A stretch of DNA of 64,000 nucleotides, taken from the IMG/VR virus record IMGVR_UViG_3300033177_000258. The stretch is one strand, 5' to 3'. The notes under the pieces were generated by a model that was given only the letters and a program-made list of their open reading frames with translations, was not told the DNA's origin and made no database searches. Position 1 is the stretch's first letter. Each line of letters starts with the position of its first letter. A program made the translations under genes and the position numbers. Shown piece after piece: positions 169-18,474 of this stretch. Source of the stretch: a virus (taxonomy: Duplodnaviria; Caudoviricetes).

Positions 169-421
169 GTTCCAAAATCATGGCTCCCAGAAAGTTTGCC
201 GTTCAGCAGGAGCTAGGCGCTTGATTGCGCCCAGATACGGGTGCTCCGGCGCCCTGGGGCTCTAACGCCAGCCTGCGGCTGGCTTCCTTGGGCGCAATCC
301 TGCGGTGCTCGTCAGCGGCGTCCTGCTGCTGGAGCCGGATGCCGACCCCGCCAACATCGCTACCGGGTGGGAGCAGCCCAAGTAGCCGCAATCGTGCGCA
401 GAATGACAGGAGGCCCAACCC

Positions 422-676
422 ATGAAGATAGCCATTAGCTGCCTGAACGCCACCGAGGCCCGGCTGAAGCGGCCCCACGGCAACCATGACATCGTGTTCG
501 GCACTGACGACATCATCGTCATCGAAATCCCCGACCCTGAGCCGGGCAGCAGCGTCCTGGCGCTGAGCCTGCGCACCGAGGCCGACGACACCGACGTGCA
601 GGCCCCGCATACGTCTCTGGCCTACCGGGAGGTCTACGTCGCCAGCAGGGGCGGCATGACGTTCCGCACCCACTGA
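422..676 (+). CDS. hypothetical protein (array unit)
   Basis: AGGAGG RBS, follows motif at 387. Confidence 0.75.
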   Translation: MKIAISCLNATEARLKRPHGNHDIVFGTDDIIVIEIPDPEPGSSVLALSLRTEADDTDVQAPHTSLAYREVYVASRGGMTFRTH

Positions 677-725
677 CGGCCGCAATCGTGTGCTGTAGGA
701 TGATGATACCTACCAAGGAGGCCAC

Positions 726-1181
726 ATGAACGACTTCTGCATCAATGCCATCGGCGAAATCAGCGTGGGGGAGCGTGGCGACACGCTCGTTGACGAGAAG
801 CAGCTTGACAAGGAGCAACTCGCAATCCTCCGCAAGTGGGAGGAACTGGAGCGGTACGCGGGCAACCATAGCTCCGTCCGCGCCTATGCGGGCATCCTGC
901 GGGACAAGCCCTACCGGACCCTGTGCGTGGAGTTCTCCTGCGAGGTGAGTGACTTTGACGCCTGCCAGCGTGCGGTGGTGGCGTTCGCCGGGCGCTTCGG
1001 CGGCAACATTGACGTGATGGGCACCGGGGAGAGCGGCGAGGTGCACGACTACCCGCATTGGGCTGTGGACATCGAGTGTCTCGACCTCGACGGCTCCGAA
1101 CTGACCACCCTGTTCTGTCAGGTGTGGCTGTACCTGCAGCAGAGCGTGAGCCTGCACCGCTTCATCCACCAAGTCGGCTGA
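726..1181 (+). CDS. hypothetical protein (array unit)
   Basis: AAGGAGG RBS, GC3-rich codons, motif at 681. Confidence 0.8.
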   Translation: MNDFCINAIGEISVGERGDTLVDEKQLDKEQLAILRKWEELERYAGNHSSVRAYAGILRDKPYRTLCVEFSCEVSDFDACQRAVVAFAGRFGGNIDVMGTGESGEVHDYPHWAVDIECLDLDGSELTTLFCQVWLYLQQSVSLHRFIHQVG

Positions 1182-1233
1182 GGGCCGCAATCGTGCGCAC
1201 AGGAGTGTATCCACTACCATCTGGAGGTCATCC

Positions 1234-1938
1234 ATGAGACCACTGCGGTGCTACATCAATGACAGCGCCATGCTGCCCGACAGCGGGGACCACGAGGGCT
1301 GCGACGTGCGGCTCGACCCGCTCTTCGAGGTGGCGAGTGCGGCGCTGGACTACCCCGGCATCACCCACATCAATCCCGGCAGCACGATGTACGAGTTCGA
1401 GGTGGAGGCCGACCGGGCCGAGTCGTTCCTGGGCCTGATGTTCGACCTGTGCTTGTTCCCGGTGTTCAACGACGAGGACAAGCCCGCGTGGGCGGCGGCG
1501 CTGGCGACTGTGCTGGAGCGCAAGGGCCTCGGCAAGACGGCGGCTGAGAAGGCCGTGTCGGAGCAGGAGTACAAGATGCTCTGCACCCGGCTCGGTGGCG
1601 GCTTTGGCGACAAGCTGTACGCCTACCTGATGGACAGCACGCCCGAGAACTTCTGGGAGGCGTACACGGTGGCCGACCTCGACCACAGGCGGAAGATGGC
1701 CGACGCGGCCAACTTCCTCAACGAGTGGGGGCAGAAGGGGCGCGAGATTGCGGCTGAGAAGCATGACGCATACCTGAACCGCAGGCCGGGCGACCGTCAC
1801 AAGTGGAAGCTCGACTGCCCCGGCATCATCCCCATGATGCAGAAGTTCGGCTTCGGGCTGAAGCAGTGGGGCGACGAGCGCCGGGCCAAGCTGGAGGCGC
1901 AGCCGAAGCCCAACCCGGCCAACGACGGCGGCGGATAG
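1234..1938 (+). CDS. hypothetical protein (array unit)
   Basis: GGAGG RBS, motif at 1186. Confidence 0.8.
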   Translation: MRPLRCYINDSAMLPDSGDHEGCDVRLDPLFEVASAALDYPGITHINPGSTMYEFEVEADRAESFLGLMFDLCLFPVFNDEDKPAWAAALATVLERKGLGKTAAEKAVSEQEYKMLCTRLGGGFGDKLYAYLMDSTPENFWEAYTVADLDHRRKMADAANFLNEWGQKGREIAAEKHDAYLNRRPGDRHKWKLDCPGIIPMMQKFGFGLKQWGDERRAKLEAQPKPNPANDGGG

Positions 1939-2040
1939 AACGCCCGCTGGCGCGGGCGGCGGATAGAACGCCCGCTGGCGCGGGCGGCGGATAGAACGCC
2001 CGCTGGCGCGGGCGGCGGATAGAACGCCCGCTGGCGCGGG
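1927..2040. repeat. 28-bp perfect tandem repeat x4 containing hairpin CGCCCGC-TGGC-GCGGGCG
   Basis: Unit GGCGGCGGATAGAACGCCCGCTGGCGCG at 1927, 1955, 1983, 2011. Confidence 0.95.
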
Positions 2041-2095
2041 CGATAGCCCCGCAATCGTGCGCACAGTGGTGTAAGAACCACTCTGGAGGTCAACC

Positions 2096-2413
2096 ATGAC
2101 AAAGGGACGCATCGTGGGGTTCGCCGGGAGCCACGGCTCCGGCTTGGCCCAACTGCTGGTGATGACCGAGAACGGCATCGAGGCGCCGGCGGTGGACAAC
2201 GGGACGACCGTGCGCTCGCTGGTCGCCGCCTATGGCGACGACGTAATCGGCGAGGGTCACACCGTCAACAACGAAGCGTTGTATGACAAACCCATCGAGT
2301 TCAGCACGGACGGCATCATGATGACGGGCTTCAACGTGCCCGAAGATGATGACCCCGACCTGCCTAACCACCTGCTGCCCAAGGACGGACCCGCGTTCGT
2401 CGTGAAGGAGTAG
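2096..2413 (+). CDS. hypothetical protein (array unit)
   Basis: GGAGG RBS, motif at 2050. Confidence 0.8.
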   Translation: MTKGRIVGFAGSHGSGLAQLLVMTENGIEAPAVDNGTTVRSLVAAYGDDVIGEGHTVNNEALYDKPIEFSTDGIMMTGFNVPEDDDPDLPNHLLPKDGPAFVVKE

Positions 2414-2495
2414 CGGCCGGCCCCTGCCCAACGCATCGGGTGGGGGCTGTCCGCAATCGTGCGCATAGGAGTACAACCTACCAAGGAGGTGCTTC

Positions 2496-3086
2496 ATGCA
2501 CCAGAACGAGAAAGACATTCGCCTGGGCCGGGTCCTGCCGAACCAGCCCATCACCATCCGCACCCGGCTGGACGAGCAGAACGACAGCGCGGACATGGTA
2601 GGCCCCGGCGTGGACGTGGCTATCCGCGTCACCCGCATGGGCATCCGCGTGGAGTTCGATGGCTATGGCGACCCCATCCTCATCGAGCAGTATGACGGCC
2701 ACCCGATGGTGCGCATCTGGTCCGACATCACGCAGGAATACCCCACCCACGACGTGAGCCTCGAAGGCGCACTGGAGCGCGAGACGGACGTGTGCGGCTC
2801 CTGCGACGGCTCCGGCATCCTGACGGACGTGGACCCGTCCGAGGGCCTGTTCCGGCGCACCATCCAGAAGTGTGACGCCTGCGGCAAGTACGCCAAGGAC
2901 ATTGACGCGGCCCGCGCTTTGTCCGCGCAGGACCCGCACTTCATCTTCTACGTGCGCGACCGCAACACCGGACTGCCCATCGCATGGGATGACCCCGACC
3001 CCAAGGCCCGCCCCGTCTGCGTGCCCGATTACGAACTGTCGGCGCTTCTCGAACGTATCTTGGAGAAGCGGGCGGGCAAGAAGTAG
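2496..3086 (+). CDS. hypothetical protein with CxxC..CxxC Zn ribbon
   Basis: CGSCDG and CDACG; AAGGAGG RBS. Confidence 0.8.
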   Translation: MHQNEKDIRLGRVLPNQPITIRTRLDEQNDSADMVGPGVDVAIRVTRMGIRVEFDGYGDPILIEQYDGHPMVRIWSDITQEYPTHDVSLEGALERETDVCGSCDGSGILTDVDPSEGLFRRTIQKCDACGKYAKDIDAARALSAQDPHFIFYVRDRNTGLPIAWDDPDPKARPVCVPDYELSALLERILEKRAGKK

Positions 3087-3129
3087 GCCCGCAATCCTGC
3101 GCCGAGTGGTGTAGGGTGTCAGAAATAGC

Positions 3130-3158
3130 TTGACACGTTTCGTCTGAAGAAGTAGTAT
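3130..3158 (+). promoter_or_regulatory. sigma70-type promoter
   Basis: TTGACA-N17-TAGTAT. Confidence 0.7.
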
Positions 3159-3383
3159 ACCAACCCACGAGGAGTGATGGCCAGTAGCAGACCAGTTCTT
3201 TTCAGGCTGGATGGCCGACCCCGGCCACCGCATCGTCGCTCAGGTTGCAGCATACACCGCAGTAGGGCTGTTGTTCGTCGTATGGGCAATCATCACGCGC
3301 TGAAGAGGAGAGGCAGGGCGCGTGCAGAACGGCGACGCGTAGTGGAACAACACACTAGCCGCCACGGGCGGCGGGAGGCGAGC

Positions 3384-3896
3384 ATGATGCACAGGGCACT
3401 CGTGACGGAGAGCACGGAGCAATACGACGAACTGATGGCCCTGCAGAACGCAGAGCCGGGCACGGACCGCGAACTGACAGCCGACGAGCTGGCTGTGGTT
3501 AGCGAGATACTCGACGCGGAAGACGGGTATGTGGTGCTCCGCGCCACGGCCGACAATGATGACTGTGAGCCCGTCTGGTACCTTAGCGACGACGAGGCGC
3601 CCGCACGAGGGGACGCCTCGCACGTTGAATGGCCCGGTGGCGTCACATGGCCGCGCAAGGCCGATGAAGACCAGCGGGAGCCGCAGGCCATGGCCATCGC
3701 GCAGGCGGCCGAGGACTGGCCTCACCGCCACGAGGACTTGCGCGACGCCGAGGAGGCGGCCGACATTGCGGTAGGCGAGCTTCTCGACGACCCGGCCGGG
3801 TGGCCACGCTTTGTACCCGACCACTGGCAGCCGGGAGCATGGGTCGACTGCTACCGCACGGCCTATGCGGCGGAGTGGGAAGTGCGCAATGCTTGA
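3384..3896 (+). CDS. acidic hypothetical protein
   Basis: GGGAGG RBS before ATG 3384 (ORF-track start 3174 is probably too long). Confidence 0.7.
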   Translation: MMHRALVTESTEQYDELMALQNAEPGTDRELTADELAVVSEILDAEDGYVVLRATADNDDCEPVWYLSDDEAPARGDASHVEWPGGVTWPRKADEDQREPQAMAIAQAAEDWPHRHEDLRDAEEAADIAVGELLDDPAGWPRFVPDHWQPGAWVDCYRTAYAAEWEVRNA

Positions 3897-3979
3897 GATA
3901 CCACGCCGCAATCGTGCGCAGAGGGGTGTAGGGTGTCGGCGGACGACACCATACACTACTTCCTACCAAGGAGCATGAC

Positions 3980-4723
3980 ATGAGCGACCTGACTTTGCCG
4001 GCCGGCACCTTTGCGCGGCACTGGCTGCTGGCGGCGCACGAGACACAGAAGCTCCAACGGCGGGCGCACGCACTTATCGAGCGCTGGCCCAAGGAGAAGG
4101 GCAAGGAGCCCACGGACAAGCAGCGGCGCAGCTACTCCAACGCGTCGTGCCTCGGGCAGATGATGGAATTGGGTGGCTCTGCTGAACTGTGCCGTCTGCT
4201 GCGCTGGCGCTTCGACAAGGCCCAGGAGTTCAAGCTGGCGGCTGTCCACGAGTACCTAAACGTGGTGCTCGAAGTCCTGCAGGAGGAAGACGAGTTCTAC
4301 ATCGAAGACCTGGGCTTCGAGTGGGAGAAGATGGAGCTACGGGAAGACTATGCCGAACCGTACTACAGCATCTTCATCGGAGCGCTCAAGATGCTGGCGG
4401 ACGCCGAGGGCCTCGAAGTCGTGGTCTTCTGCTCGCACAGCGGCAGCGGCTACGTGGACGAGACCTTCTGGGACGCCGAAATCCGGCTGTACCAAGGCGA
4501 CGAGTTCATCACAGTGCCCTTCTTCCTGCTGAGCAGCGAGTTCGGAGGGCGCTCCAGTTCCCAAGGCGCCTACATGGGAGAGATGTACGGGCTTCCTGAG
4601 CGCTATGACGAGGACGCGGAGGAGATGGTGACGGAGCGCGACCGGATGGAAGCGCTGGAGGCGGCGGGGGACCCCGACGACCTGTACCAGACATCGCGCG
4701 AGGGTTGGCCTGCTACCGAGTAG
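3980..4723 (+). CDS. hypothetical protein (array unit)
   Basis: AAGGAG RBS, motif at 3907. Confidence 0.8.
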   Translation: MSDLTLPAGTFARHWLLAAHETQKLQRRAHALIERWPKEKGKEPTDKQRRSYSNASCLGQMMELGGSAELCRLLRWRFDKAQEFKLAAVHEYLNVVLEVLQEEDEFYIEDLGFEWEKMELREDYAEPYYSIFIGALKMLADAEGLEVVVFCSHSGSGYVDETFWDAEIRLYQGDEFITVPFFLLSSEFGGRSSSQGAYMGEMYGLPERYDEDAEEMVTERDRMEALEAAGDPDDLYQTSREGWPATE

Positions 4724-4858
4724 GCGCCGCAATCGTGCGCAGAGTATTGGATGGGGAGGGCGACAGCGAGACGACTTGGTAGTCCTAGCAGCTACCCACG
4801 GCTCGTTGAGTGCGCACTCCTCCCTCCCCCATCAAATTCCCCTACCAAGGAGGGCTAC

Positions 4859-5500
4859 ATGCCCAAGAGACCACCCGCAGATGAACGCAAGGTCAACCAA
4901 GTGCTTCGTGAGGCGGAGCGCATCGCGTCCAATGACCGGAGCTCGCTCTCCGGCGACATCATCCAGTTCCCGGCCAGCGTCCAGCACGCTCTGGAGGCCA
5001 TCTCGCACTTCGAGGTGACCACTCGTGACATCGAAGAGCCGAGCAACGTGGCGCGGGGCAAGCGCTTGGCCGACCACCTGCTCGCCAAGGTCGTAGACAG
5101 CGCGTGGCAGGGTGCGAGGGGCAACAAGGGCACCGAGGTCCTCGGTTGCTTCATCATGGCTCTGCGCGGCCACATGAACGACGTGCAGCACATCCTCGAC
5201 ATCGCTCTCAAGCACGCAGCCGCCGAGTTCAAGTTCGACGTGGACGACGAGACGGGCTACCCCAAGTGCCCGCACTGTGGCGACGTGCTCGACACGCTCG
5301 AAGCCGACAAGGTGACGACCGACTAGGGCGTGACGCTGGAGTGCGAAGAACTGGTGGATGGGCGCTTCGAGTACAGCTACGACAGCATGGACGACGGCGA
5401 CATGGGTGGCGAAATCAACCACGAGGGCTACGCTTGCCCGCACTGCGGCAAGGAACTGCCCGAAGTCATGCAGATGCTCATTGACGCGATGAGCGGCTAA
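4859..5500 (+). pseudogene. Zn-ribbon protein interrupted by in-frame TAG at 5324-5326
   Basis: CPHCG before the TAG and a second CPHCG after it in the same frame; ends TAA at 5498-5500. Confidence 0.65.
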
Positions 5501-5715
5501 CGGAAATCATGGCTCCAAGAGCGAGGCCGTTCAGGGCCTCCCAAAGGGTTCCCTGCCACCCTGCCGGCGCGCCGGGCGCGGCTCTAACGCCATCAAGCTG
5601 TCCTTGGTAGGGACTACAGCGCGGCGGGGGCCTGCCGACCGACATCCCGGCAGGCCGCCCGCTCCGCAATCGTGCGCACAGTAGTGTACCCATCATCCAA
5701 TGGAGGTCGCCCCCC

Positions 5716-6198
5716 ATGTCTCAGCAACGCAAGCCCTTCACTGCTGATGACGTGCGCAAGCATGGTCGCCTGAAGAGAGGTGCCATCCTCGGCGGGCCGG
5801 AACCCTACGGCTGCATCAACTCCGGCTTTCGCCCCTCCCTCGCGCATGTCAACTGCCCCACTGAACTCTGGACTGTCGGGCCCGAAATGCGGGCCGAAGA
5901 AGTACGCAAGGTGCTCAAGCAGTACGAAGCCCGCGACCGGTTCGGGCTGGCCGACAAGAGGCAGAAGGCCTTCCTGCGCAAGCGCATCCACCGGGTGCCG
6001 AACGACCCGGCAGGGACCCGTACCGTCTTCGTCTTCAGGTCCAAGGCCCCGGCCATCGAGAAGTTCGTGGAACTGTGCAACGTCATCCTCGACAGCAATG
6101 CCAAGGACCGGGCGCAGCACCAGCAGGCGCTGGATGATATGCGCTCGCCTGACCCTGAGCGCCGGGTGCGCGGGGCACTGGCTTCGATGGACTACTGA
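5716..6198 (+). CDS. hypothetical protein (array unit)
   Basis: GGAGG RBS, motif at 5665. Confidence 0.8.
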   Translation: MSQQRKPFTADDVRKHGRLKRGAILGGPEPYGCINSGFRPSLAHVNCPTELWTVGPEMRAEEVRKVLKQYEARDRFGLADKRQKAFLRKRIHRVPNDPAGTRTVFVFRSKAPAIEKFVELCNVILDSNAKDRAQHQQALDDMRSPDPERRVRGALASMDY

Positions 6199-6246
6199 GC
6201 CGCAATCGTGCGCTGAGGAGTACAACCCTACCGAGGAGGCCGCAAC

Positions 6247-6750
6247 ATGAAAGTCCGGCGCCGCAAGTCCTGCACACCCCAGGTGCCGTGCTCCGTGCAC
6301 TGCTACCACGCCGCGACCCTGTGCTTCTGTGAGAAGTGCCGCACCCAGCCGCTGGGCTACCGGGTCTGGGACCACAGTCATGGCAGTTGGTACAGCCACC
6401 TCAAAGACGTGCCCGCCGAGCAGCAGGTCTACGTCTCGCCTGAGTACGTCTCGTGCACCTTCGGGGGCCGCTTCAGCGCCGAGACCAATGTGCACGTCAT
6501 GATTGAGAACCTCGATGAACTGAAAGCGGGCCTGAGCCTCTGGCTCAAGCCCTACCGCCTGAGCGCCGGGCAGGTGCAGCAGGAAGTCAAGGAGGGGGAT
6601 GGTGTCAGCCAGCGCTACCTCATCGCCAGCGCGTTCGCCAGCATCGAGCACGGTCTCCTGTGTCTGAGGCAATTCAGCGCCAGCCAAGAGCCGACCGACG
6701 CCATCGAGGCCATCGGGGAGAAGGCCAAAGCGCAATCCTGCGCTGAGTAG
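6247..6750 (+). CDS. Cys/His-rich hypothetical protein; stop codon supplied by next motif
   Basis: GAGGAGG RBS; ends QSCAE* inside motif at 6731. Confidence 0.75.
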   Translation: MKVRRRKSCTPQVPCSVHCYHAATLCFCEKCRTQPLGYRVWDHSHGSWYSHLKDVPAEQQVYVSPEYVSCTFGGRFSAETNVHVMIENLDELKAGLSLWLKPYRLSAGQVQQEVKEGDGVSQRYLIASAFASIEHGLLCLRQFSASQEPTDAIEAIGEKAKAQSCAE

Positions 6751-6783
6751 TACAACCTTTCATCGGCCGGAGGTCACCTGCCT

Positions 6784-7230
6784 ATGCCTGAACAGAAGCA
6801 TCGCGTACAGATGAACGTGCTCTACCGCGACGGGAGCAACTACAAGGTCTGGTGTATCGTCAACTTCAAGGAAGGCGAGCACCTCGACCCCAGCGACGTG
6901 CAGGCCCTGCTCGCAGCCCGCGAGGGCGACCGGCTGGACCTTGGCTTCGCTCACGAACTGAAGCACCCCGGCCAGATGGCGGCTGAGACTGACCCCGACT
7001 GGGCCGGCTTCCCCACCGACGACGACGGCGACTTCTTCGAGGTCACCGAGAAGAGCATATACTGCCTCTGCCAACTGGTCGAGGGTCACGACTTCGACAC
7101 GGTTGCGAAGTACGGGCAGAGCGTGGGCATCACCTTCAATGCCTTCGTCCAGAACTACCTGCACCGCAAGGGGTCTGGGCGGCGGCACGATGACTGCCTG
7201 CTGATGAAGCGGGTGCGCGGCTGGCTGTAG
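6784..7230 (+). CDS. hypothetical protein (array unit)
   Basis: GGAGG RBS. Confidence 0.8.
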   Translation: MPEQKHRVQMNVLYRDGSNYKVWCIVNFKEGEHLDPSDVQALLAAREGDRLDLGFAHELKHPGQMAAETDPDWAGFPTDDDGDFFEVTEKSIYCLCQLVEGHDFDTVAKYGQSVGITFNAFVQNYLHRKGSGRRHDDCLLMKRVRGWL

Positions 7231-7305
7231 GCGCAATCGTGCGCACAGAAGTGTAACGGGGGCGGGCGACCGCCCCCGACCGCTAACCCTAACGAGGTAC
7301 GAGAC

Positions 7306-7836
7306 ATGAGTGGAGAGAAGGTCATCGGCAGCGTCAACATCATGCCCAATGGCGAGGTGTTGCGCGAGCAGTTCGGCAAGGAGTTCGCCGCCACCATCGC
7401 CGGGCTACTCTTCCCGGCCAAGTCGCTTTGGCAGCGGGCCAAGCGGATGGCGCTGGCAGAGGGCTGTGCCAACGACGACTGGTCGCCGAGCGACAGCTAT
7501 GAGCGCGTCCAGATGGAAGCCCGGCAGATGCGCGAGCAGGTCAAGCGCGTGCATGACGCTATCTGGAACCTTAGCATGGTGGCTCTGGAGCAGGGCATCA
7601 TCAACCTGCCCGCCGACATGCCCGACGAGGCTGAGTTCGTCCTGCAGCGTGAGGGCCACGAGCCGGAGAGCATCACCGCCGCCACCATTCGCAACATGAC
7701 GAAGCTGCAGATGGACTTCACCGCATTGGTGCAGGACAAGGGTACCTGCATCACCCACTTCATCCTGACCAAGCTCGACGACATCGAGGACGGGCTCTTC
7801 GAGCCCGAGGACGAGTGGGTCGTCCCCGAGAAGTAG
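7306..7836 (+). CDS. hypothetical protein (array unit)
   Basis: GAGGT RBS, motif at 7232. Confidence 0.8.
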   Translation: MSGEKVIGSVNIMPNGEVLREQFGKEFAATIAGLLFPAKSLWQRAKRMALAEGCANDDWSPSDSYERVQMEARQMREQVKRVHDAIWNLSMVALEQGIINLPADMPDEAEFVLQREGHEPESITAATIRNMTKLQMDFTALVQDKGTCITHFILTKLDDIEDGLFEPEDEWVVPEK

Positions 7837-7912
7837 GCGCAATCGTGCGCCGATAGATGTAGGGGGCGGGGAGACCTGCCCCCACACTTCTTCCCCGAAG
7901 GGATGATGCCCA

Positions 7913-8377
7913 ATGCCAATGCCTCCCCGGATGAGGCAGGCCAGGCACACCTGCAAGCTGTGCTCCGGCCATGCGCACTACTTCGTGCCGTTCGAGAAGC
8001 TGGAACCGTGGATGCGTGAGTACACCCGCACGCCACACGCTCGCTCCACCCGGCAGTTGACCGTAGACGGCCGCACCATGGAAGGCGTGTACCTGTGCAC
8101 TGTGCATAGCGCTCCGCTGCTGGACGCGTTCACCGCCAAGGCCACTCACACCGACAGTATGTACGACCTTACGCTGCAATGGGCCGAGGACCGTGTGGGC
8201 TACACCCAGCCCCTACTCCTGCGGGTCATCGAAGGCACCGTTCAGGAAGCCGCCGGTGTGCCTGCGGGCATGGGCGCGCCCAAGTTCGTACCCGGTCTCA
8301 TGCTCCGCGCTCGCGCCGCTGTGGCCAGCGCCAGCACGAAACAGGTTGACGGCACCCCGCTGGTCGCGATAGCATAG
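7913..8377 (+). CDS. hypothetical protein (array unit)
   Basis: Motif at 7838; CxxC near N-terminus. Confidence 0.7.
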   Translation: MPMPPRMRQARHTCKLCSGHAHYFVPFEKLEPWMREYTRTPHARSTRQLTVDGRTMEGVYLCTVHSAPLLDAFTAKATHTDSMYDLTLQWAEDRVGYTQPLLLRVIEGTVQEAAGVPAGMGAPKFVPGLMLRARAAVASASTKQVDGTPLVAIA

Positions 8378-8429
8378 GCGCAATCGTGCGCCAAGTAGTG
8401 TAACCCACTACACGCTGTGGAGGTTGAAC

Positions 8430-8729: not shown

Positions 8730-8774
8730 GCCGCAATCAAGCGCTCAGATACGTGAGTTGTACATCACTGCGGG

Positions 8775-8969: not shown

Positions 8970-9044
8970 CGAAGCCCCAGCCCCCCAGCGCAGGCAGCGC
9001 GCTCAATAAGCAGACTGTCAGGTTTCTGAGCACAGAAATGAGAG

Positions 9045-9763: not shown

Positions 9764-9815
9764 GCCCGCAATCCTGCGCAGAGCAGTGTACCCATCACCG
9801 CATGGAGGTCACATC

Positions 9816-10325: not shown

Positions 10326-10353
10326 GCACCCATCACAGCATGGAGGTCGCATC

Positions 10354-10722
10354 ATGGCACAGCACGGCTTCGCTTCGATGAAGACTCTGCAGGCTCTCTT
10401 CCCGAAGATAGCCACCTGCAAGCTGGCACTGCTTCGGGCCCTCATCAAGCGCGAGGTCAAGTCTATCCCGGTCGCCGATATGCTCGGTGTGCAGCCGGGG
10501 AAGCACGACTACCTGCCTGCGGGCAACCGCAGCAGCAACATTCTCCTCATCGCCGACCACCTGCTCGGCACCTTCGGGGTCGAGACCCTCGGCCACGGTG
10601 TGTACTACTGCAACACCGGGGAGACCTACGACGCCACCCTGCTCTATGACGCTCGGCAGGGCCGCTTCTGGGTCGGTAGCTGGGGCGACCTCGTGGAGGC
10701 CAACCCCACGAAGTTCGGGTAG
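10354..10722 (+). CDS. conserved-looking phage hypothetical protein
   Basis: GGAGG RBS; YCNTGETYDATLLYD..SWGDLVE pattern. Confidence 0.8.
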   Translation: MAQHGFASMKTLQALFPKIATCKLALLRALIKREVKSIPVADMLGVQPGKHDYLPAGNRSSNILLIADHLLGTFGVETLGHGVYYCNTGETYDATLLYDARQGRFWVGSWGDLVEANPTKFG

Positions 10723-10797
10723 CAGCAATCCTGCGCAGACAAGTGTACAACGGGGCAGCATCTGCTGCCCCAACCCATACCTCTGGAGGTCTCACCC

Positions 10798-11007
10798 ATG
10801 GTCATCTCGACGTGCAATGCGAACACCTGCTCCCGCCCCAACGGCACGCCCAACTGCAGCTCCTGCAGCCAGCGCCGCACCCCGAAGGACCGCAACGGCA
10901 ACGCCCGCAAGCTCACCTTCGCCGACACGCAGGCCATGCTCAACCACCGCGCCGCAGGCCGCCGCGTCCGCAACCGCGCCGCCCGCCAGGGCCAGGTGGT
11001 GTCCTAA
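10798..11007 (+). CDS. small basic Cys-rich protein
   Basis: GGAGG RBS; motif at 10725. Confidence 0.7.
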   Translation: MVISTCNANTCSRPNGTPNCSSCSQRRTPKDRNGNARKLTFADTQAMLNHRAAGRRVRNRAARQGQVVS

Positions 11008-11151
11008 TGAGCGTCGCCGCTCAGGTCAAGGCCGTGCAGGACATCATGCAGGAGGGTCTGGGCGCAGCGTGGAAGTAGCCCCGCAATCGTGCGCAGAGTA
11101 GTATCGGGGAGGGGCAACCCTCCCCGCACCCCAATTCACGGGAGGTCGCAC

Positions 11152-11511
11152 ATGGCACAGTTCAGAGGGACTTTGCGGGGCGGTCGTGGCGAAGCGTCGC
11201 GGCTCGGTGACAAGCAGACGGGGCTCACCGCCCACGTCAACGGCTGGCACTGCGGTATCGAGGTTGTCGCCCACCACGGCGGCGGGCAGGACCACTTCAA
11301 CGTCTACGCCACCGGGGGCAGCGGGGGCAGCGGGGGGCGCACCTTCCTCGGCGTCTTGATTGACGGCGAATGGCAGCCCGCCAAGCCCAAGAGCGACGAA
11401 GACGAAGACGGGGGCCGCGATGGCCGTTGCCGCCGCTGCGGCAACTATGACAGCGAATGCACCTGCGAGGATACGCCCTCGCTCGATGACGTGCAGATGC
11501 GGGAACGGTAG
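11152..11511 (+). CDS. hypothetical protein (array unit)
   Basis: GGGAGG RBS, ATG 11152. Confidence 0.8.
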   Translation: MAQFRGTLRGGRGEASRLGDKQTGLTAHVNGWHCGIEVVAHHGGGQDHFNVYATGGSGGSGGRTFLGVLIDGEWQPAKPKSDEDEDGGRDGRCRRCGNYDSECTCEDTPSLDDVQMRER

Positions 11512-11585
11512 CCCCGCAATCGTGCGCAGAGTAGTATCGGGGGCGGGCAACCGCCCCCGCACCCTGTCTCACAGGAGGTCGTCTC

Positions 11586-11867
11586 ATGCCAGTCGAGATG
11601 AAGTGCTTCGGCGTCTCAGAGAGTCGCAATGACTTTGGTATGTTGGGTGTGCGCCTACTCACGCAGGAGGGCCACTTCTACGAGGTCGCGGCCAACGACC
11701 TGAACGTGCCCCGGCGCGGTGACGTGGTGGAAGTCCCCACCCTGCCCAATGGCGAACTCAACTTCGCCGCCAAGGGCTTCGAGATTCCCGACCGCAAGTA
11801 CCCGGACGCTCCGGCCAACGTCATCCAAGCGGCATGGTCTATCCCGGTCCCGCCGCCCATCGAGTAG
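11586..11867 (+). CDS. hypothetical protein (array unit)
   Basis: AGGAGG RBS. Confidence 0.8.
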   Translation: MPVEMKCFGVSESRNDFGMLGVRLLTQEGHFYEVAANDLNVPRRGDVVEVPTLPNGELNFAAKGFEIPDRKYPDAPANVIQAAWSIPVPPPIE

Positions 11868-11939
11868 CCGCAATCGTGCGCAGAGAAGTATCGGGGAGGG
11901 GCAACCCTCCCCGCACCCTGATTCACAGGAGGTCGTACC

Positions 11940-12113
11940 ATGCCCGATGATGTGGTCCTGGAGCCCTATATGGACTTCGCCACCATCCGCGACGAGTCCG
12001 ACATGCGCTATGCGCGGCTGGCCGTGGCAGGCAAGCACCCCCAATTCAGCGGCACTTACCGAGTCGTGCGCGCCGGCAAGCCAGTCCTGTCTCCGCAATC
12101 GTGCGCAGAGTAG
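11940..12113 (+). CDS. 57-aa hypothetical protein; stop codon supplied by next motif
   Basis: AGGAGG RBS; MPDDVVLEPY..SPQSCAE*. Confidence 0.7.
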   Translation: MPDDVVLEPYMDFATIRDESDMRYARLAVAGKHPQFSGTYRVVRAGKPVLSPQSCAE

Positions 12114-12148
12114 TGTAAGCACGAACCATGAACTCAGGAGGTCGTACC

Positions 12149-12592
12149 ATGCCCCAGGCGGAAATCATCAGTGAGGCCAAGCCGGTCGATTGCGTGGAGT
12201 ACAGTCTGGCGTGCGATGTGCACGGGCGCGGCTCCGGCTTCGCTTTCAAGTCCGACGAGCGCGGCTGTGTGGACTTCGAGGGCAAGTCCCAGACGTGGCT
12301 TGACAACTATCGCAAGGTCGTCACCGACTTCATCACGGGCGCCAAGCGCTTCCCCATCTACGTGCAGAAGTATGAATGGAGCTACGTCGAGCCCGCAATC
12401 GCGCGCTGTGTAGTGTGCAGAGCCGAAGTGACTCTCGATGACTTCACGTCCTGCTGCGACAACTGCGGCCAACTCTATGACAAGAGCGGGTGGCCGCTGC
12501 AGCCCCGGCACCTGTGGGAGGAGCAGGAGGAGCCGGAGCCGAGCGTCCCCATCTTCACGGGGCGCGGCTTCGAGACGGTTCCCACATTCTAG
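12149..12592 (+). CDS. Zn-ribbon hypothetical protein
   Basis: AGGAGG RBS; CVVC..CDNCG. Confidence 0.8.
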   Translation: MPQAEIISEAKPVDCVEYSLACDVHGRGSGFAFKSDERGCVDFEGKSQTWLDNYRKVVTDFITGAKRFPIYVQKYEWSYVEPAIARCVVCRAEVTLDDFTSCCDNCGQLYDKSGWPLQPRHLWEEQEEPEPSVPIFTGRGFETVPTF

Positions 12593-12827
12593 GTCCCGAA
12601 AGGGAGGCCGTTCAGGCGGCCTCCCTTGCCGCAATCCTGCGCAGAGATGTGTGGAGAGCGGCCGGCCTGGCTCTAACGCCAGGCTTGTCGGGTATCGTCA
12701 ATGGCATTGCCACTTCCAACTGGCTACGGTTGGCACCGACCAGCAGGAAGGCCGTTGGCGGTACACGACAAGCCTGCCGCAATCGTGCGCACAACAGTGT
12801 AGCACACACCCCGACAGGGAGGTCGTC

Positions 12828-13112
12828 ATGAGACCCATTCAGAAGGAAGCGTGTCGCGTCCGTGAGGTCTGGTACATGGGCGTCTTTCAGGGTATGCAGG
12901 TGACCCTGCGCGGCGAGAAGTTCCCCCGCCAGAAGGGGCACGTCTATGCCACCAGCAGCGTTATCGGCGCAGTGGAGTCCGCCTTCCGCGAGAAGGCCGG
13001 GCTGCCTGCAGGCGACGACAAGACCAAGCCCATCGCCGAGCAACTCGGCGACGACGTGGGCCATCACATTCAGGAGGCTGTGGACCAGCGCCCCGGTCGC
13101 ACGATACGGTAG
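12828..13112 (+). CDS. hypothetical protein (array unit)
   Basis: GGGAGG RBS, ATG 12828. Confidence 0.75.
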   Translation: MRPIQKEACRVREVWYMGVFQGMQVTLRGEKFPRQKGHVYATSSVIGAVESAFREKAGLPAGDDKTKPIAEQLGDDVGHHIQEAVDQRPGRTIR

Positions 13113-13188
13113 CCGCAATCGTGCGCAGAGTATCGTGGGGAGCCGCAGTGCTCCCCACGTATCCATCACATCTATGGAGGTCGCACCC

Positions 13189-13413
13189 ATGGCCAAGCTG
13201 ACCAAGACGGAGCAGGTCATCGCCAAGCTGCAGGAACTCGGGTACACCGAGACCCAGACCAGAGGGCGCAAGTACCGCTGCTTCACGCACCCGAAGATGA
13301 GCGAGGACCGCAAGGTCTTCGTGGGCAACGCGGGGGCCGTGCGCATCGGCCGCTGCATCACCCAGAGCTTCAGCCACACCGAGCGCTTCCACGCGAAGTA
13401 CGCCATCAAGTAG
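13189..13413 (+). CDS. small basic hypothetical protein
   Basis: GGAGG RBS, ATG 13189. Confidence 0.75.
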   Translation: MAKLTKTEQVIAKLQELGYTETQTRGRKYRCFTHPKMSEDRKVFVGNAGAVRIGRCITQSFSHTERFHAKYAIK

Positions 13414-13485
13414 CCCGCAATCGTGCGCAGAGTAGTATAGGGGGCAGGGTGACCTGCCCCCAACCCCATACCGGGAGGTCGCATC

Positions 13486-13812
13486 ATGCCCCTGCAGAAG
13501 CTACTGGAGAAGATTGTCAGGAACCACGGCTACCTGAACGGCCCGGACGTTGACGAACTGGCCAAGCTCGACCGAATGCACCAAGTGTGCGTGCGCTGCA
13601 ACGCCGCGCGCTTCACCTGCCCCGTGCAGTGCTGCGCCCACCTCTGCACTATCATCGGTGAGAGTGGCAAGGACTGGGTACGCGACGTGAGCCTGCTGAG
13701 CACCGACCCCGCGCTGCAGACGTATGCCCACGTCTACGGCGTGCCCGAGCCCACCCCGGTGCTCGTGCTCAGTGGCGTGATGATAGTGGTGCCCCTCGGC
13801 GACGAGGGGTAG
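13486..13812 (+). CDS. hypothetical protein (array unit)
   Basis: GGGAGG RBS. Confidence 0.75.
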   Translation: MPLQKLLEKIVRNHGYLNGPDVDELAKLDRMHQVCVRCNAARFTCPVQCCAHLCTIIGESGKDWVRDVSLLSTDPALQTYAHVYGVPEPTPVLVLSGVMIVVPLGDEG

Positions 13813-14195
13813 CCGCAATCGTGCGCATAGAGATGTGAGCGGACGGCGCATCCCGAGTAACAGCAGCGAACCCCGTAGCCGGCTACAGGGGCGTAGCAGC
13901 GGGAGCAGCAATGCCCAGTGCGCCGTCCGGTCGCAGTTTTCTAGGTCCCCGTTCAGTTGCCGTTCAATCGTAATCCGACCCGCAATCATGCGCAGACGTG
14001 TGGACCAGGGGCCCAGGTCTAACGCCAGATGGCGAGGCAGACGCCGGCAGGCCAATCCTCTCGCTCCCAAGTGTTCGCTCTGTGGAGTGCCCCTCATGAG
14101 GCGAAGCAGAGGCACGGGGAGAAAGAGTGGCTGTCGGCGTGTGCCCCGCAATCGTGCGCAGAGGAGTGTACCCACTACACTGTGGAGGTCGCATC

Positions 14196-14534
14196 ATGTC
14201 CTACGACGAAGCGCTCGCGGCTGCGCTGGCCGCACTCAAGCAGACAGAAGAACTGGCGCCCGGCCACATCATCCACCCGATTGATGCTCTGACGAACGCG
14301 GGCTTCCGCATCGAGTCGGGCCGCCATACGTGGACGCCTGAGGAGAAACAGGTCTGGGAGCACCCCGAAGCGACGAAGCGCAATCAGAAGCTGCGCCGTG
14401 GCACGCCCGATGTCATGCGGGCGGTCTTCTGCACGCTCTACGGCTTCCCCGAATACCCGGCGCTCGCTCCCCTGCACCTCATTGTGGGGCGCTGCGGCAA
14501 TACCCGCTGCTACGACATCTGGCCGCCGTCGTAG
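14196..14534 (+). CDS. hypothetical protein (array unit)
   Basis: GGAGG RBS, ATG 14196. Confidence 0.75.
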   Translation: MSYDEALAAALAALKQTEELAPGHIIHPIDALTNAGFRIESGRHTWTPEEKQVWEHPEATKRNQKLRRGTPDVMRAVFCTLYGFPEYPALAPLHLIVGRCGNTRCYDIWPPS

Positions 14535-14588
14535 GGCGGCCGCAATCGTGCGCATAGGAGTGTAACCACTCACTTCTGGAGGTCTCAC

Positions 14589-15029
14589 ATGCCCACACCC
14601 GGACTGCACAGCGACGAAGCGCGGCAGGCGGTCGCCATGATTTACCTGAATCAGGCCGGCGACGAAGTACCCTTCCCTGGCGGCAAGGACCTGGACGAAC
14701 TGCCCTCATGGGAGCGCGGCGCAGAGTACGCCCGGCGCCGCAATCTCGCGCGCGATGAATGGCTCAAGCAGCGCGCCAGCGAGACGCCCGACTTCCCCGA
14801 GCCCGACCCCGCCTATATGTTCCACATCGGCAGCGGCTACGTCAAGCTCACGGTCGCGGTCTTCTGCAGCAACGTGATGCCGGCGCACGCCGAACAGGAG
14901 TGCTACAGAATCATGGAGGAGTGGATTCAGGAGCACCGCCCCGACGAACTGAATGACGAGGGCGAACTCGATGAGGTCTACTGCGAAATCATCCCGGCAG
15001 AGGTGGAGCCCCCCGACCCCAACGGGTAG
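14589..15029 (+). CDS. acidic hypothetical protein
   Basis: GGAGG RBS. Confidence 0.8.
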   Translation: MPTPGLHSDEARQAVAMIYLNQAGDEVPFPGGKDLDELPSWERGAEYARRRNLARDEWLKQRASETPDFPEPDPAYMFHIGSGYVKLTVAVFCSNVMPAHAEQECYRIMEEWIQEHRPDELNDEGELDEVYCEIIPAEVEPPDPNG

Positions 15030-15093
15030 GGGCTCTGCCCCGCAATCGTGCGCAGAGTGGTGTAAGAACCCACTACGCTGTGGAGGTTGCATC

Positions 15094-15390
15094 ATGAGAC
15101 GGCGATACATACGGGCGACGGGCAGCACCGGCTATGACAAGACGGGCATCACCTTCCCGGTGCAGGAGCCGGTGGACTGGGAGGTCCTGCTGGCCGGCCT
15201 GAAGAGGCCGAACCCCACCTGGGAGCACGAGCACGGCTGGGAGAATCAGCCGGAGGTCCTGGTCTTCACTGCCAGCGACGAAGAAGCGCGGATGGTAGAC
15301 GAACGCATCACGGAGCACCCCGCCCTGCGTATGCGCACGCTTGTGCGCGACAGGCACTGGCGGGCGAAGCCGCAATCCTGCGCAGAGTAG
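15094..15390 (+). CDS. hypothetical protein; stop codon supplied by next motif
   Basis: GGAGG RBS; ends KPQSCAE*. Confidence 0.75.
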   Translation: MRRRYIRATGSTGYDKTGITFPVQEPVDWEVLLAGLKRPNPTWEHEHGWENQPEVLVFTASDEEARMVDERITEHPALRMRTLVRDRHWRAKPQSCAE

Positions 15391-15421
15391 TGTAAGAACC
15401 CAGCTACTCTGGAGGTTGGAT

Positions 15422-15568
15422 ATGCCCTACAGGCAGAGTGACGAAGGCAAGTGCCCGCGCTGCGGCCAAGTCGGCTGCAGCGTTGGCTGCGCGTGGAACC
15501 GCCCGAACCAGAACATCACGCGCCCGAAGTGGCGTGTGCAGCCACTCATACCCAAGGAGGCACGCTGA
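15422..15568 (+). CDS. 48-aa Zn-binding-like peptide
   Basis: GGAGG RBS; CPRCGQVGCSVGC. Confidence 0.65.
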   Translation: MPYRQSDEGKCPRCGQVGCSVGCAWNRPNQNITRPKWRVQPLIPKEAR

Positions 15569-15596
15569 TGCGGCGCGGCTAGATGATTGCGGAAGG

Positions 15597-15622
15597 GCCC
15601 CCGGTGAGAGCCGGGGGCTTTT
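15597..15622 (+). terminator. intrinsic terminator
   Basis: GCCCCCGG-TGAGAG-CCGGGGGC-TTTT. Confidence 0.75.
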
Positions 15623-15809
15623 CCATTTCATGGGTCCCAGTTCAAGACCGTTCAATCGATTGCACACATCCGCAATCGTGCCCCTGCCGTGCCGGGGCGC
15701 CGGGCTCTAACGCCAGAGCCAATCATCCCAAGGGGTAATTGTGTCGCAATCGTGCGCAGAGTAGTGTCAGGTGTCAACCTGACCAATACCACCTAACAGG
15801 TGAGGCAAC

Positions 15810-16202
15810 ATGAAACGCGTGCAGAAGACCCTCAAGCCCGACTCCCGTCACAACTTCCAGTATGAGGAGGGGGAGTTTGAGCAGTATTGCGCTCGGCTCA
15901 CCGCCTCCAAGCGCCGCCACCTCGCCGCCCGGCAGGCGGAAGCGGAAGCGGACCCGGTGCACGACCTCAAGCAGGCGGAAGTCCGCGCCTTCCACGCCAT
16001 GATGCGCAACCGCACCGCCGAAACGGAAGCGGTCTACAAGACCGCGTGGCAGGCGCTGCACGACTATCGCATGAAGCATGACACCGGGTACCGCCGCACC
16101 GTGGAGCACGACCAGCGCCGCGCGCAAGAGAAGCACGCCGAGGTCTTGCAGGCGCGCTTCGGCGTGGCCACGACCGGAATGGTCGCCGCCGACAGTATGT
16201 AG
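15810..16202 (+). CDS. helical hypothetical protein
   Basis: GTGAGG RBS, motif at 15745. Confidence 0.75.
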   Translation: MKRVQKTLKPDSRHNFQYEEGEFEQYCARLTASKRRHLAARQAEAEADPVHDLKQAEVRAFHAMMRNRTAETEAVYKTAWQALHDYRMKHDTGYRRTVEHDQRRAQEKHAEVLQARFGVATTGMVAADSM

Positions 16203-16717
16203 ACAGGTGCGCGGGGGAGACAACCCCTCCCCCGCAATCATGCGCACAGTAGTGTATGAAGCGGGTGGCGCCCAGAAACATCGCGTGAGACGCTCGCCGT
16301 CTCAATCGGGCGAAAAGCGGGCTCAAAAGCGGCGCCAGACCAGCGCCAAAGCCACCCGCAATCCTGCGCAGAGTAGTGTACAGAGTAATCCTGCTGCCTA
16401 TCCCAAGATGAACTTGGTGGGTTCTAGAGAGGTTCGGGCACCTGCAAAGGTGAGCTACCCACCGTCCCGGCATCGCAGACTAGCGGCTGCCGGAGGCGCC
16501 TAACTCAACGCCTCCGCCCTCTCCGGGGAAGGCACACAGGTACACCGGAGGGCCAAGGGAAGGCTCACACCTGCTTTCCCTTGGCTCTTCTGTTCAGCCG
16601 TTCAATCGAAGTCTTAACCGCAATCGTGCGCAGAGCAGCGGGGGCAGGGGCTGGGCTCTAACGCCAGGCACTGCGGCCGGCCGCAATCATGCGCACAATG
16701 GCATGATGTGATGCCCT

Positions 16718-16798
16718 ATGTGGCTGCTGGTGATGCTGCCCGTCTGTCTGGAGAAGACACTCGACTTCCTCGCGTGGCTCTTCCCGGCAGGTGAGTGA
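16718..16798 (+). CDS. 26-aa hydrophobic micro-peptide
   Basis: MWLLVMLPVCLEKTLDFLAWLFPAGE*, fills the interval between motifs 16682 and 16801. Confidence 0.45.
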   Translation: MWLLVMLPVCLEKTLDFLAWLFPAGE

Positions 16799-16835
16799 GC
16801 CGCAATCGTGCGCCCAGTCGTGTGAGGTGATGCCG

Positions 16836-16898
16836 ATGTACATAGTCGCGCTGCTGCTCAACCTGATGTCCTACTGCTACCCGCCGCCCCGGCAGTAG
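16836..16898 (+). CDS. 20-aa hydrophobic micro-peptide
   Basis: GAGGTG RBS; MYIVALLLNLMSYCYPPPRQ*. Confidence 0.5.
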   Translation: MYIVALLLNLMSYCYPPPRQ

Positions 16899-17157
16899 GG
16901 CCGCAATCGTGCGCAGAGTAGTGTACGGAGTAAGCGAACGCGAACCTCCGGCAACTCCCCCTACCAAAGGTGATGCCTATGCGCTGAGTGTTGCTACGTT
17001 GTCCGCCACCCGCCTTCTAGAGGCCCTGCGGGGTAAGTGGTGGCGGAAGCGTATGGAAGTCGTGCCGGGGAGCCGGGGGCACCGTCGCCCCCGCCCCCGC
17101 CCCCGCAATCGTGCGCATAGCTGTGTACGCACCAAAAACATGCCGGAGGGCAGACGC

Positions 17158-17421
17158 ATGACACGACTCATCATCAGCCACATCATCACAGCACTGGTCG
17201 GTGTCTTCTCGGTCCACTACTACCAATTCCTCAAGGCCCACGACCTGCAGCGGGGCGACATCATCCCCGGCTGCTGCGCCCTGGCCGCCGCCGTGCTCAT
17301 TGTCGCCTTCACGCAGGCGGTCGCCGCCCTGCGCGCCCAGCACGCGCAGACGCGCATCGCAATCCTGCGCCAGCGCAAGCTCACCGATATGACCGGACGG
17401 GTAGAGCTCGACGCAGAGTAG
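17158..17421 (+). CDS. small two-TM membrane protein
   Basis: GGAGG RBS; two hydrophobic segments. Confidence 0.7.
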   Translation: MTRLIISHIITALVGVFSVHYYQFLKAHDLQRGDIIPGCCALAAAVLIVAFTQAVAALRAQHAQTRIAILRQRKLTDMTGRVELDAE

Positions 17422-17616
17422 CCCGCAATCGTGCGCCCAGTGATGTAGGGAGGGACTTCGGCCCCTCCTGATTCCATGGCTCCCTGTTCAGTGCCGTTCA
17501 GCGAAAGTCACAAACGCAATCATCCAGCGCCGCCGTGAGCCAGGGCTGGGCTCTAACGCCAAGGGCCGCGCAATCGTGCGCCGGGTAGTGTACCAACTAC
17601 ACTTCGGAGGTCGCCT

Positions 17617-17676
17617 ATGATAGCACTCGCACTCATCGGACTCGTGATGTTAGGACTCGCCGCACTCTTTGGGTAG
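17617..17676 (+). CDS. 19-aa hydrophobic micro-peptide
   Basis: GGAGGT RBS; MIALALIGLVMLGLAALFG*. Confidence 0.55.
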   Translation: MIALALIGLVMLGLAALFG

Positions 17677-17839
17677 ACGACCGGGCCGCAATCGTGCGCA
17701 TACGTAGTGTAAGAAAGTAGTTTACACAACTCTTCTGCTATGCTAAACTCTCTTCTGTAGGGCCGAGGAGGTCGGCCCGCAATCATGCGCACAGTAGTGT
17801 AGGACGGACGTACAACACACCATAGGGAAGTGATAGGCT

Positions 17840-18181
17840 ATGCGCACGAACCCGAACCAAGTGTACTACAAGCCGAACGCGCAGGTCAATTTCCGCAAGG
17901 GTGACCTGTACCAGCAGGGGCCGTCGAAGAATCACCCGAAACCCGTCGCCGAAGTCTACACCGGCGTGCCGCTGGACCTCCTCGCCGTCGCGCCCTATGG
18001 CGATGACCACGCCAATCGCAACTGGTATCGGCGCACCTTCGGTCGATACCCCAACTTCACCGGGCCGCGCGCCCTCAGCTTCATCCGCGCGCAAGCCGAA
18101 GTCTTCAATGCCAACTTCGGCCGCTATCCCCACGAACGGGCCGCTATCGCACTCGGCGCCAACGCGGAGGCCGTCGCCTAA
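17840..18181 (+). CDS. hypothetical protein (array unit)
   Basis: Motif at 17778; hairpin after stop. Confidence 0.75.
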   Translation: MRTNPNQVYYKPNAQVNFRKGDLYQQGPSKNHPKPVAEVYTGVPLDLLAVAPYGDDHANRNWYRRTFGRYPNFTGPRALSFIRAQAEVFNANFGRYPHERAAIALGANAEAVA

Positions 18182-18474
18182 CCACGGACGAACGGGCCGG
18201 CCTTCGGGCCGGCCCGTTGCTATTCCTACCCGCAATCGTGCGCCGTAGAGTGTAGACAGGAAAACATGGGCCCGAGAGACGGGCCGTTCATATCAAGACC
18301 AACCCGCAATCCTGCGCACAGCAGCGGGGGCAGGGGCTGGGCTCTAACGCCAAGACCGTTCAGGAAACTTGGCTCCAGGATGATTGCCGTTCAGTTCATG
18401 CCCCATCCGCAATCATCCCCACCCACCCCCAGCAGCAGCTCAGCCTCTAACGCCAACACCTGGCTACACAAACG

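Follow-up and report, generated by a model that had tools for sequence, protein, structure and literature searches.

The stretch of DNA analysed here, 64,000 nucleotides (nt) long and called the window throughout (IMG/VR record IMGVR_UViG_3300033177_000258, Caudoviricetes), has a G+C content of 64% and comes from a large uncultured phage of sludge and digester samples. Its left part is taken up by an array of small genes, nearly all of which are preceded by a copy of the same short sequence, hereafter called the box, which is followed in turn by a leader and a Shine-Dalgarno (SD) sequence. A second array diverges from it leftward, its boxes (left of position ~170) lying on the minus strand, and at its far end the rightward array meets a convergent gene for a protein of 353 amino acids (aa), P0001. 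The array, its boxes and examples of its heads (box, leader and SD sequence) are located as follows:

292 to 18330, plus strand: rightward array, from core and box scans and a position table
294, plus strand: degenerate box copy
388, 682, 1187, 2051, 2453, 3091, 3908, 4729, 5666, 6202, 6732, 7233, 7839, 8380, 9130, 9185, 9768, 10302, 10725, 11083, 11516, 11870, 12095, 12395, 12631, 12779, 13115, 13417, 13815, 13982, 14148, 14542, 15042, 15372, 15672, 15746, 16234, 16358, 16620, 16683, 16802, 16903, 17105, 17359, 17425, 17570, 17688, 17779, 18232, 18306, plus strand: starts of the 50 box cores (at most 1 mismatch)
14146 to 14198, plus strand: example of a short head, with box, A/C-rich leader, GGAGGTC and ATG
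9183 to 9256, plus strand: example of a hairpin head, with box, GGGGAGGGG/CCCTCCCC hairpin from the first post-box base, SD sequence and ATG
3130 to 3158, plus strand: canonical promoter TTGACA-N17-TAGTAT within the array, downstream of the box at 3091
1 to 168, minus strand: tandem 41-bp 'empty cassettes', directed leftward, 4.1 copies, 100% identical
32-43, 73-84, 114-125 and 155-166, minus strand: cores of the empty cassettes, with one box and one GGCCGC/GCGGCC hairpin per cassette

The initial annotation had described about 50 copies of a 24-bp motif, situated just past the stop codons and ahead of the next ribosome-binding site, and our scans bear this out. With up to 3 mismatches allowed, the reported 24-mer gave 29 matches, all on the plus strand at 1186-17801, and none in shuffled sequences. 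The 12-base core GCAATCNTGCGC (at most 1 mismatch) occurs 63 times in the window compared to 2.35 expected matches, and 54 of the 63 lie on the plus strand between 294 and 18317. With GCAATCGTGCGC at the same stringency we found 50 copies, 36 of which also have at least 7 of the 10 consensus bases of the second half. According to the position table of these 50 copies the full motif is 25 nt long, CCGCAATC(G)TGCGC AnAGtAGTGTA, and the information content drops sharply outside of it. The first half, CCGCAATC(G)TGCGC, is near-invariant and constitutes an inverted repeat with the geometry of a 5-bp stem and a 4-nt loop. The second half, AnAGtAGTGTA, is semi-conserved, its conserved part being GTGTA, and variants such as TGGTGT, GGGTGT and GAGTAC precede good genes. 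It had been suggested that TAGTGT fits the TAnnnT pattern of a sigma-70 -10 element; among the 50 copies, however, T17 (52%), A18 (64%) and T22 (74%) are less conserved than G19, T20 and G21 (76-82%), and the second half of the related array on contig L083 (see below) has no TAnnnT at all. Judged by its sequence the box is not a host-type promoter, as it lacks a -35 element at a distance of 17 bp and its TAnnnT positions are weak. Sigma-54, ECF (extracytoplasmic function) and short-spacer -35/-10 promoters were also considered and rejected by eye, their spacing being unfit.

Thirty-one of the 34 start codons in the array have a box 43-74 nt upstream, the distance from core to ATG amounting to 43-54 nt without a hairpin and to 69-74 nt when a GC-rich hairpin follows the box. 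On the other side, the gap between the preceding stop codon and the box is 1-11 nt for 23 boxes, and 4 upstream ORFs terminate at a TAG or TAA within the second half of the box. To the left as to the right of the divergence point, all boxes have the orientation of the genes that follow them. Each gene comes with its own box, leader and SD sequence, in line with the self-contained expression cassettes proposed before. The further claim of one motif per gene, peptide and RNA unit stands for the 31 starts but not for 9 of the 54 plus-strand cores, which are found inside a second repeated module and not ahead of genes. What is repeated is the entire head and not only the box, and the leaders sort into few classes. 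Stable hairpins starting at the first base 3' of the box are present in at least 8 heads; the heads at 9183 and 11081 are identical across 69 nt; and in the head at 388 the SD sequence is only ~8 nt past the first half of the box. In the heads at 2051, 8380, 14542, 15042 and 15372 the leader segment immediately 5' of the SD sequence is complementary to the second half of the box, with pairing partners that vary by head; this pairing was marginal in one permutation test (p = 0.05), and no enrichment of such complementarity was found overall.

The genes behind the heads are, as noted initially, unrelated to one another: the 34 array ORFs gave no match among themselves by blastp, and no Pfam family was found at the default threshold in the 32 ORFs scanned. 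Some slots of the array hold small hydrophobic peptides or no ORF. We found no canonical promoter at the start of the array, nor ahead of most of its genes. Two intrinsic terminators lie inside the array (9044-9081 and 15595-15624), each followed by a copy of the second module and then by a box. A 28-bp tandem repeat at 1927-2042 (4.1 copies, 100% identity) spans the stop codon and hairpin of the gene at 1234-1938, and has two fewer copies in sample L002.

Five more cores lie on the minus strand at 32-228, to the left of the array start and oriented leftward. The start of the array at 293 given by the initial annotation thus holds for the rightward array, but the boxes extend beyond it. The copy number of the 41-bp empty cassettes varies by sample (2 in L002, at least 4 in L006), and on contigs that reach further left the boxes go on ahead of leftward genes. 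At the other end, the statement that no copies occur past 18.5 kb except near 19780 is right as regards a degenerate pair at 19768-19802 but misses an isolated core on the minus strand: between 18.5 and 64 kb the only core besides this pair is an exact one at 56064-56075, inside tnpB (55300-56493), which has no second half and may be a chance occurrence. A search of IMG/VR with the box gave a single match, taken as chance. As 185,579 species genomes likewise gave only 20 matches, one each and taken as chance, the box is not a host repeat.

The second conserved module, for which we use the term unit, is ~100 nt long and occurs in 10 copies. It consists of GTTCA repeats, a box-like core and an invariant GGGCTCTAACGCCA. 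The GTTCA repeats number two or three and are 8-11 bp apart (10-11 bp in 4 of the 5 units measured); no consensus RNA fold was found across the 10 units. The units and the terminator at the end of the array are:

178 to 270, plus strand: unit copy 1, at the divergence point of both arrays
5506 to 5592, plus strand: unit copy 2
9087 to 9176, plus strand: unit copy 3, right after the intrinsic terminator 9044-9081
12587 to 12681, plus strand: unit copy 4
13939 to 14027, plus strand: unit copy 5
15629 to 15715, plus strand: unit copy 6, right after the terminator 15595-15624
16577 to 16666, plus strand: unit copy 7
17473 to 17561, plus strand: unit copy 8
18263 to 18455, plus strand: unit copies 9 and 10, adjoining each other where the array ends
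18475 to 18506, either strand: bidirectional intrinsic terminator, common to the array and the convergent 353-aa gene

The layout of the GTTCA repeats (e.g. in the unit at 17473-17561) is reminiscent of the binding sites of winged-helix response regulators, and on contig L085 three perfect 11-bp repeats, GGTCCTGTTCA, are found at ~500-470 on the minus strand.

A related array is present on contigs L081 and L083, which encode P0011, a member of the P0001 family with 27-28% identity. In this 9.5-kb array of small genes the box is again invariant but has another sequence, GCGTATTCCTGCGC; it occurs 16-17 times, and the GTGTAG-like half that comes after it is less strict. The GGCTCTAACGCC block is the same as in the window and occurs 14 times, 33-65 nt ahead of the box. 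A hairpin containing GCCGTTCAG, often with a T-rich run after it, precedes each of these blocks; hairpins stand ahead of 11 of the 17 boxes, and two of them pass a strict terminator scan. Copies of the box thus agree with one another inside each genome but not from one genome to the other (the window has GCAATCG where L083 has GTATTCC); GTGTA and GGCTCTAACGCC are kept in both. The stem/loop geometry of the first half is also kept in L083, by way of a C-to-T change that is still able to pair with G in RNA, and the heads at 2298 and 5376 of L083 have their SD sequence only ~8 nt past the first half of the box. One or two genes are weakly shared between the arrays of the window and L083, in the same order; the others differ. 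L081 and L083 are 99.9% identical and therefore uninformative as a strain comparison.

Contigs from the phage of the window itself are for the most part colinear with it. The comparison of cassette order among relatives that had been proposed as a check found indel or rearrangement breakpoints at the box in three cases (L056, L085 and L072, all short contigs), as expected if the repeats served as recombination joints. The segments of the window concerned are:

13433 to 13938, plus strand: 506-nt segment comprising a 108-aa gene, one box and a slot without coding sequence, in place of which L056 has 87 nt of other sequence
14028 to 14146, plus strand: spacer of ~120 nt, ~17 nt in L056, bounded by the end block of a unit and the next box
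15743 to 16202, plus strand: cassette of a box and a 130-aa gene, of which 15743-16044 (the sequenced part) is 98.7% identical in L085

L056 matches the window at 98% identity over 12721-13432 and diverges immediately after the box core. In L085 the homology to the window cassette begins 3 nt before the box core, and the upstream neighbour differs: this upstream cassette (unit, box and peptide gene) resembles 17538-17640 of the window and adjoins a P0001-family gene. L072 has a homologue of the gene at 13189-13413 (52-58% aa identity) between two perfect boxes, with a leader class and neighbours different from those in the window.

The convergent gene at the end of the array belongs to a small family that always adjoins box arrays. 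In the window its features are:

18513 to 19574, minus strand: P0001 gene, 353 aa, convergent to the array
19716 to 19744, minus strand: canonical P0001 promoter TTGACT-N17-TATGGT, with TG
19768 to 19802, minus strand: pair of degenerate boxes, GCAATCCTGTGC and GCTATCCTGCGC at a distance of 23 bp, on the upstream side of the P0001 promoter and kept in L010

The P0001-family genes of the window, L083 and L085 have near-consensus TTGACA-N16/17-TAnnnT promoters, which the array genes do not. Two paralogues of the family flank a one-gene box cassette both in L011 (131-3118) and in L083 (789-3504), and the contig of P0010 shows, by gene layout alone, the same convergent arrangement with a small-gene array as the window. 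Taken together, the P0001 family appears to be linked to the ends of box arrays. P0001 has no Pfam or PHROG family, and its AlphaFold model (pLDDT 75) gave no Foldseek match at E <= 0.001 and by VIA-align only generic helical matches (Z <= 5.6). A role of P0001 as activator was considered and found no support, there being no Pfam or PHROG family and no recognisable or DNA-binding fold. The long 5' leader of the gene (19575-19715, minus strand) contains a hairpin region that is kept in relatives with 85% and 66% protein identity (L010 and L011) and may be an autoregulatory element.

We give roughly even chances to a reading in which the box serves a phage-specific transcription apparatus as promoter or promoter core, the unit serves it as terminator, and both together form shuffling joints. 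Each small early gene, peptide gene and non-coding slot, with few exceptions, would then have its own start signal. The invariant 14-mer CCGCAATCGTGCGC would be the specificity element, AnAGtAGTGTA would be where the DNA melts and transcription starts, or else the first bases to be transcribed, and the unit, with its two or three GTTCA repeats and the GGGCTCTAACGCCA that follows, often beside a hairpin, would act as the matching terminator or insulator. The reader of the signal might be a phage-encoded RNA polymerase or a host polymerase redirected by a phage factor. Several observations are in keeping with this. The boxes point in the direction of transcription, and their spacing to SD sequence and ATG is fixed. 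As terminators inside the arrays of the window and of L083 precede boxes, transcription must restart between terminator and SD sequence. Two units stand directly before the terminator that protects the convergent gene. The contiguous, sharply bounded form of 25 nt resembles the promoters of single-subunit or virion polymerases. In the region of the structural genes, and only there (46-62 kb of the window), we found another motif, GGAATACTTC, in 7 exact plus-strand copies (46302, 50646, 52547, 55254, 56529, 59344 and 62213; 0.09 expected), which probably represents a separate late promoter class. A box confined to early arrays, GGAATACTTC at late genes and TTGACA-N17-TAnnnT at few others fits a set of class-specific promoters. 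Homologous recombination would add, delete and reorder genes, as each gene carries an identical head of 25-75 nt (box, leader and SD sequence) at which such exchange can take place.

The following points weigh against this interpretation. Our searches for polymerases, sigma factors and integrases, which covered the 64-kb window and (with Pfam) the tape-measure protein up to residue 2683, found no RNA polymerase, sigma factor or recognisable activator. The clues to the start site are in conflict, since the heads with a short SD distance require a start at about position 13 of the box and the hairpin heads suggest one at about position 24. Finally, the stem and loop of the first half, kept in L083 with a G-U-compatible change, are no less suited to a hairpin in RNA than to a site in DNA. 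We consider it rather unlikely that the box acts as promoter, and the unit block as sequence-specific terminator, in a transcription system undescribed in large high-GC siphovirus-like phages, with a new polymerase or specificity factor as reader; the P0001 family, which has no recognisable fold and in four lineages shows a canonical host-type promoter or a position at the edge of box arrays, is one candidate for this reader. If the box is a promoter, its ~75 copies in this phage lineage would provide a compact (14-25 nt), highly specific signal with a matching conserved terminator module, and the diverged specificity of the sister lineage would yield a pair of orthogonal expression signals as well as a handle on the reader protein.

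Conserved phage-polymerase signals offer a parallel to such a promoter. Polymerases of the T7 type have a sequence-specific termination signal common to relatives, which the conserved unit block parallels, and the promoters of phage polymerases, those of T7, T3 and SP6 among them, are, like the box, contiguous conserved motifs of ~17-25 nt that do not vary inside one genome but do so among relatives. In phage AR9, 41 early promoters of the virion RNA polymerase have an extended, highly conserved consensus (PMC5312081). The box array is similar to the virion polymerase promoters of AR9 and phiKZ in having dozens of copies of an extended motif that belong to one temporal class, but the box is GC-rich and not AT-rich, and no polymerase gene was found in the window. 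T4 middle promoters combine an activator (MotA) box centred near -30 with a good sigma-70 -10 element, in phages that encode MotA and AsiA; the likeness of the present box to a -10 element is weak, and the window yielded neither a MotA nor an AsiA family. The start-associated sequences of cluster K mycobacteriophages, also named as analogues in the initial annotation, are 13-bp motifs a few bases before the start codon that overlap the ribosome-binding site; the core of the box lies 43-74 nt upstream of the start and is followed by a separate GGAGG, so that this analogy was not upheld.

The closest layout is already known from T4-like phages, and the present array is a new variant of it. Promoter-early stem-loop (PeSL) cassettes occur in hyperplastic regions of T4-type phages, each genome having ~50 of these repeated heads in intergenic positions (Arbiol et al. 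2010, PMC2839356; PMC4122927). Such a head consists of the upstream stop codon, a promoter motif, a stem-loop, an SD sequence and a start codon, and stands mostly before ORFans; differences between related phages begin and end at the heads, and the promoters match the host sigma-70 consensus (PMC2839356). The array of the window has the same composite heads (stop, motif, stem-loop, SD, start) before ORFans, and indels or replacements between relatives end at heads as well, as seen in the short contigs L056, L085 and L072. It differs in that the box does not match the sigma-70 consensus (canonical promoters elsewhere in the phage look different), in the invariant and lineage-specific 14-mer, and in the additional conserved module of ~100 nt. 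Moreover, the phage is large, high in GC, siphovirus-like and not a T4-type myovirus such as those that carry PeSL cassettes. The array shows identical expression heads as exchange joints for host-takeover genes outside the T4-type phages, and exchange at such heads helps to explain the fast-turning repertoire of small ORFans in large phages.

The features of the box could also be accounted for at the level of RNA. The box might be a processing site on long polycistronic RNAs made from few promoters, possibly the units, with an endoribonuclease cutting at the 3' edge of the (C/G)CGCA-AUCG-UGCGC hairpin in the manner of Cas6 or Csy4, so that one mRNA per gene starts with AGAGUAGUGUA. This would make sense of the heads with an SD sequence ~8 nt past the first half, of the hairpins at or near what would be the new 5' end, and of the G-U-compatible change by which L083 keeps the stem/loop geometry; units are found at the array start and after terminators, where the promoters of operons would be expected, and the second half can pair with the leader in the subset of heads mentioned above (permutation p = 0.05). 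We nevertheless regard processing as unlikely. A stem of 4-5 bp is very weak, complementarity between second half and leader is not enriched overall, no endoribonuclease was identified, and no canonical promoter was found at the start of the array; furthermore, the leftward array opens with boxes and without a unit, and the two units that close the array, taken as promoters, would direct transcription into a terminator without any cargo in between. The near-invariance of the first half is equally what a protein-binding site would show, and the box might be an operator of the stoperator type, where a phage repressor bound to the asymmetric 14-mer between genes blocks elongation or initiation, either keeping toxic early genes silent in the carrier state or in lysogeny or shutting them off after the early phase. 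The stoperators of cluster A mycobacteriophages are alike in form, being short asymmetric sites (13-14 bp) in multiple copies and one orientation, within tiny stop-start gaps and with co-variation between lineages (PMC9283540, PMC6550527), and the degenerate boxes upstream of the P0001 promoter, kept in L010, could give autoregulation. On the other hand, stoperators are spread genome-wide and have a known helix-turn-helix (HTH) repressor (PMC9283540, PMC6550527), whereas the box sites are limited to arrays and no repressor was identified in the window: no HTH repressor adjoins the array, the sole HTH protein (44565-45482) is encoded far away, and P0001 shows no DNA-binding fold. The arrays would also still need promoters, and the canonical type is not seen before most genes. 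An operator of this kind seems to us quite improbable, slightly more so than processing.

Breakpoints at the box, together with tandem empty cassettes of variable copy number, might further be taken to mean that the box is a dedicated site for site-specific recombination, as in integrons, to which its link with expression is secondary. Integrons likewise have tandem unrelated small genes that are separated by a repeat and gained or lost at it, and a serine recombinase gene is present on the box-bearing contig L042. The integron analogy drawn initially was not supported. No integrase was found in the window, as had been noted from the start, the intI family included; and attC sites, which stand at the 3' end of each cassette, are imperfect inverted repeats that span 57-141 bp and carry R and L boxes, an architecture absent from the box, which is 25 nt long, has an inverted repeat of 4-5 bp and stands 5' of each gene. 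Its fixed distance to SD sequence and ATG, its strict co-orientation with transcription and the expression signals that every cassette carries are a poor fit for such a site, and identical repeats of 25-75 nt suffice for homologous recombination. We therefore hold a dedicated recombination site to be very improbable. The recombinase gene of L042 (6574-7086, plus strand; Resolvase domain) is on a 7-kb contig with four boxes from the same study as the window phage, and may belong to an IS607-type element.

As to the phage itself, a megablast search found no close relatives among public phage records, and the window terminase is only ~30% identical to those of Bacillus phages. No tRNA genes were found in the window, and an Rfam scan of positions 1-21000 gave nothing relevant. 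TAG is the commonest stop codon, which is unusual at 64% G+C (22 of 34 array genes and 16 of 33 other window genes); an enrichment specific to the array was considered and rejected, as the array is no different from the rest of the window. The genes of the window include those for a terminase, an NAD-dependent ligase and TnpB, thymidylate-synthase-like and methylase genes with inteins, and the start of a tape-measure gene, and contigs with this gene set reach 132-134 kb, with one in the 0.2-1 Mb class. Intein splicing domains are found in the thymidylate-synthase-like gene at 29703-31913 (minus strand) and in the DNA methylase gene at 42433-44286 (plus strand). In the tape-measure protein, PhageMin_Tail is the only domain found up to residue 2683; the first part of its gene lies at 62448-63998 (plus strand) and the gene continues in L008, and its product of 4397 aa implies an extremely long tail.

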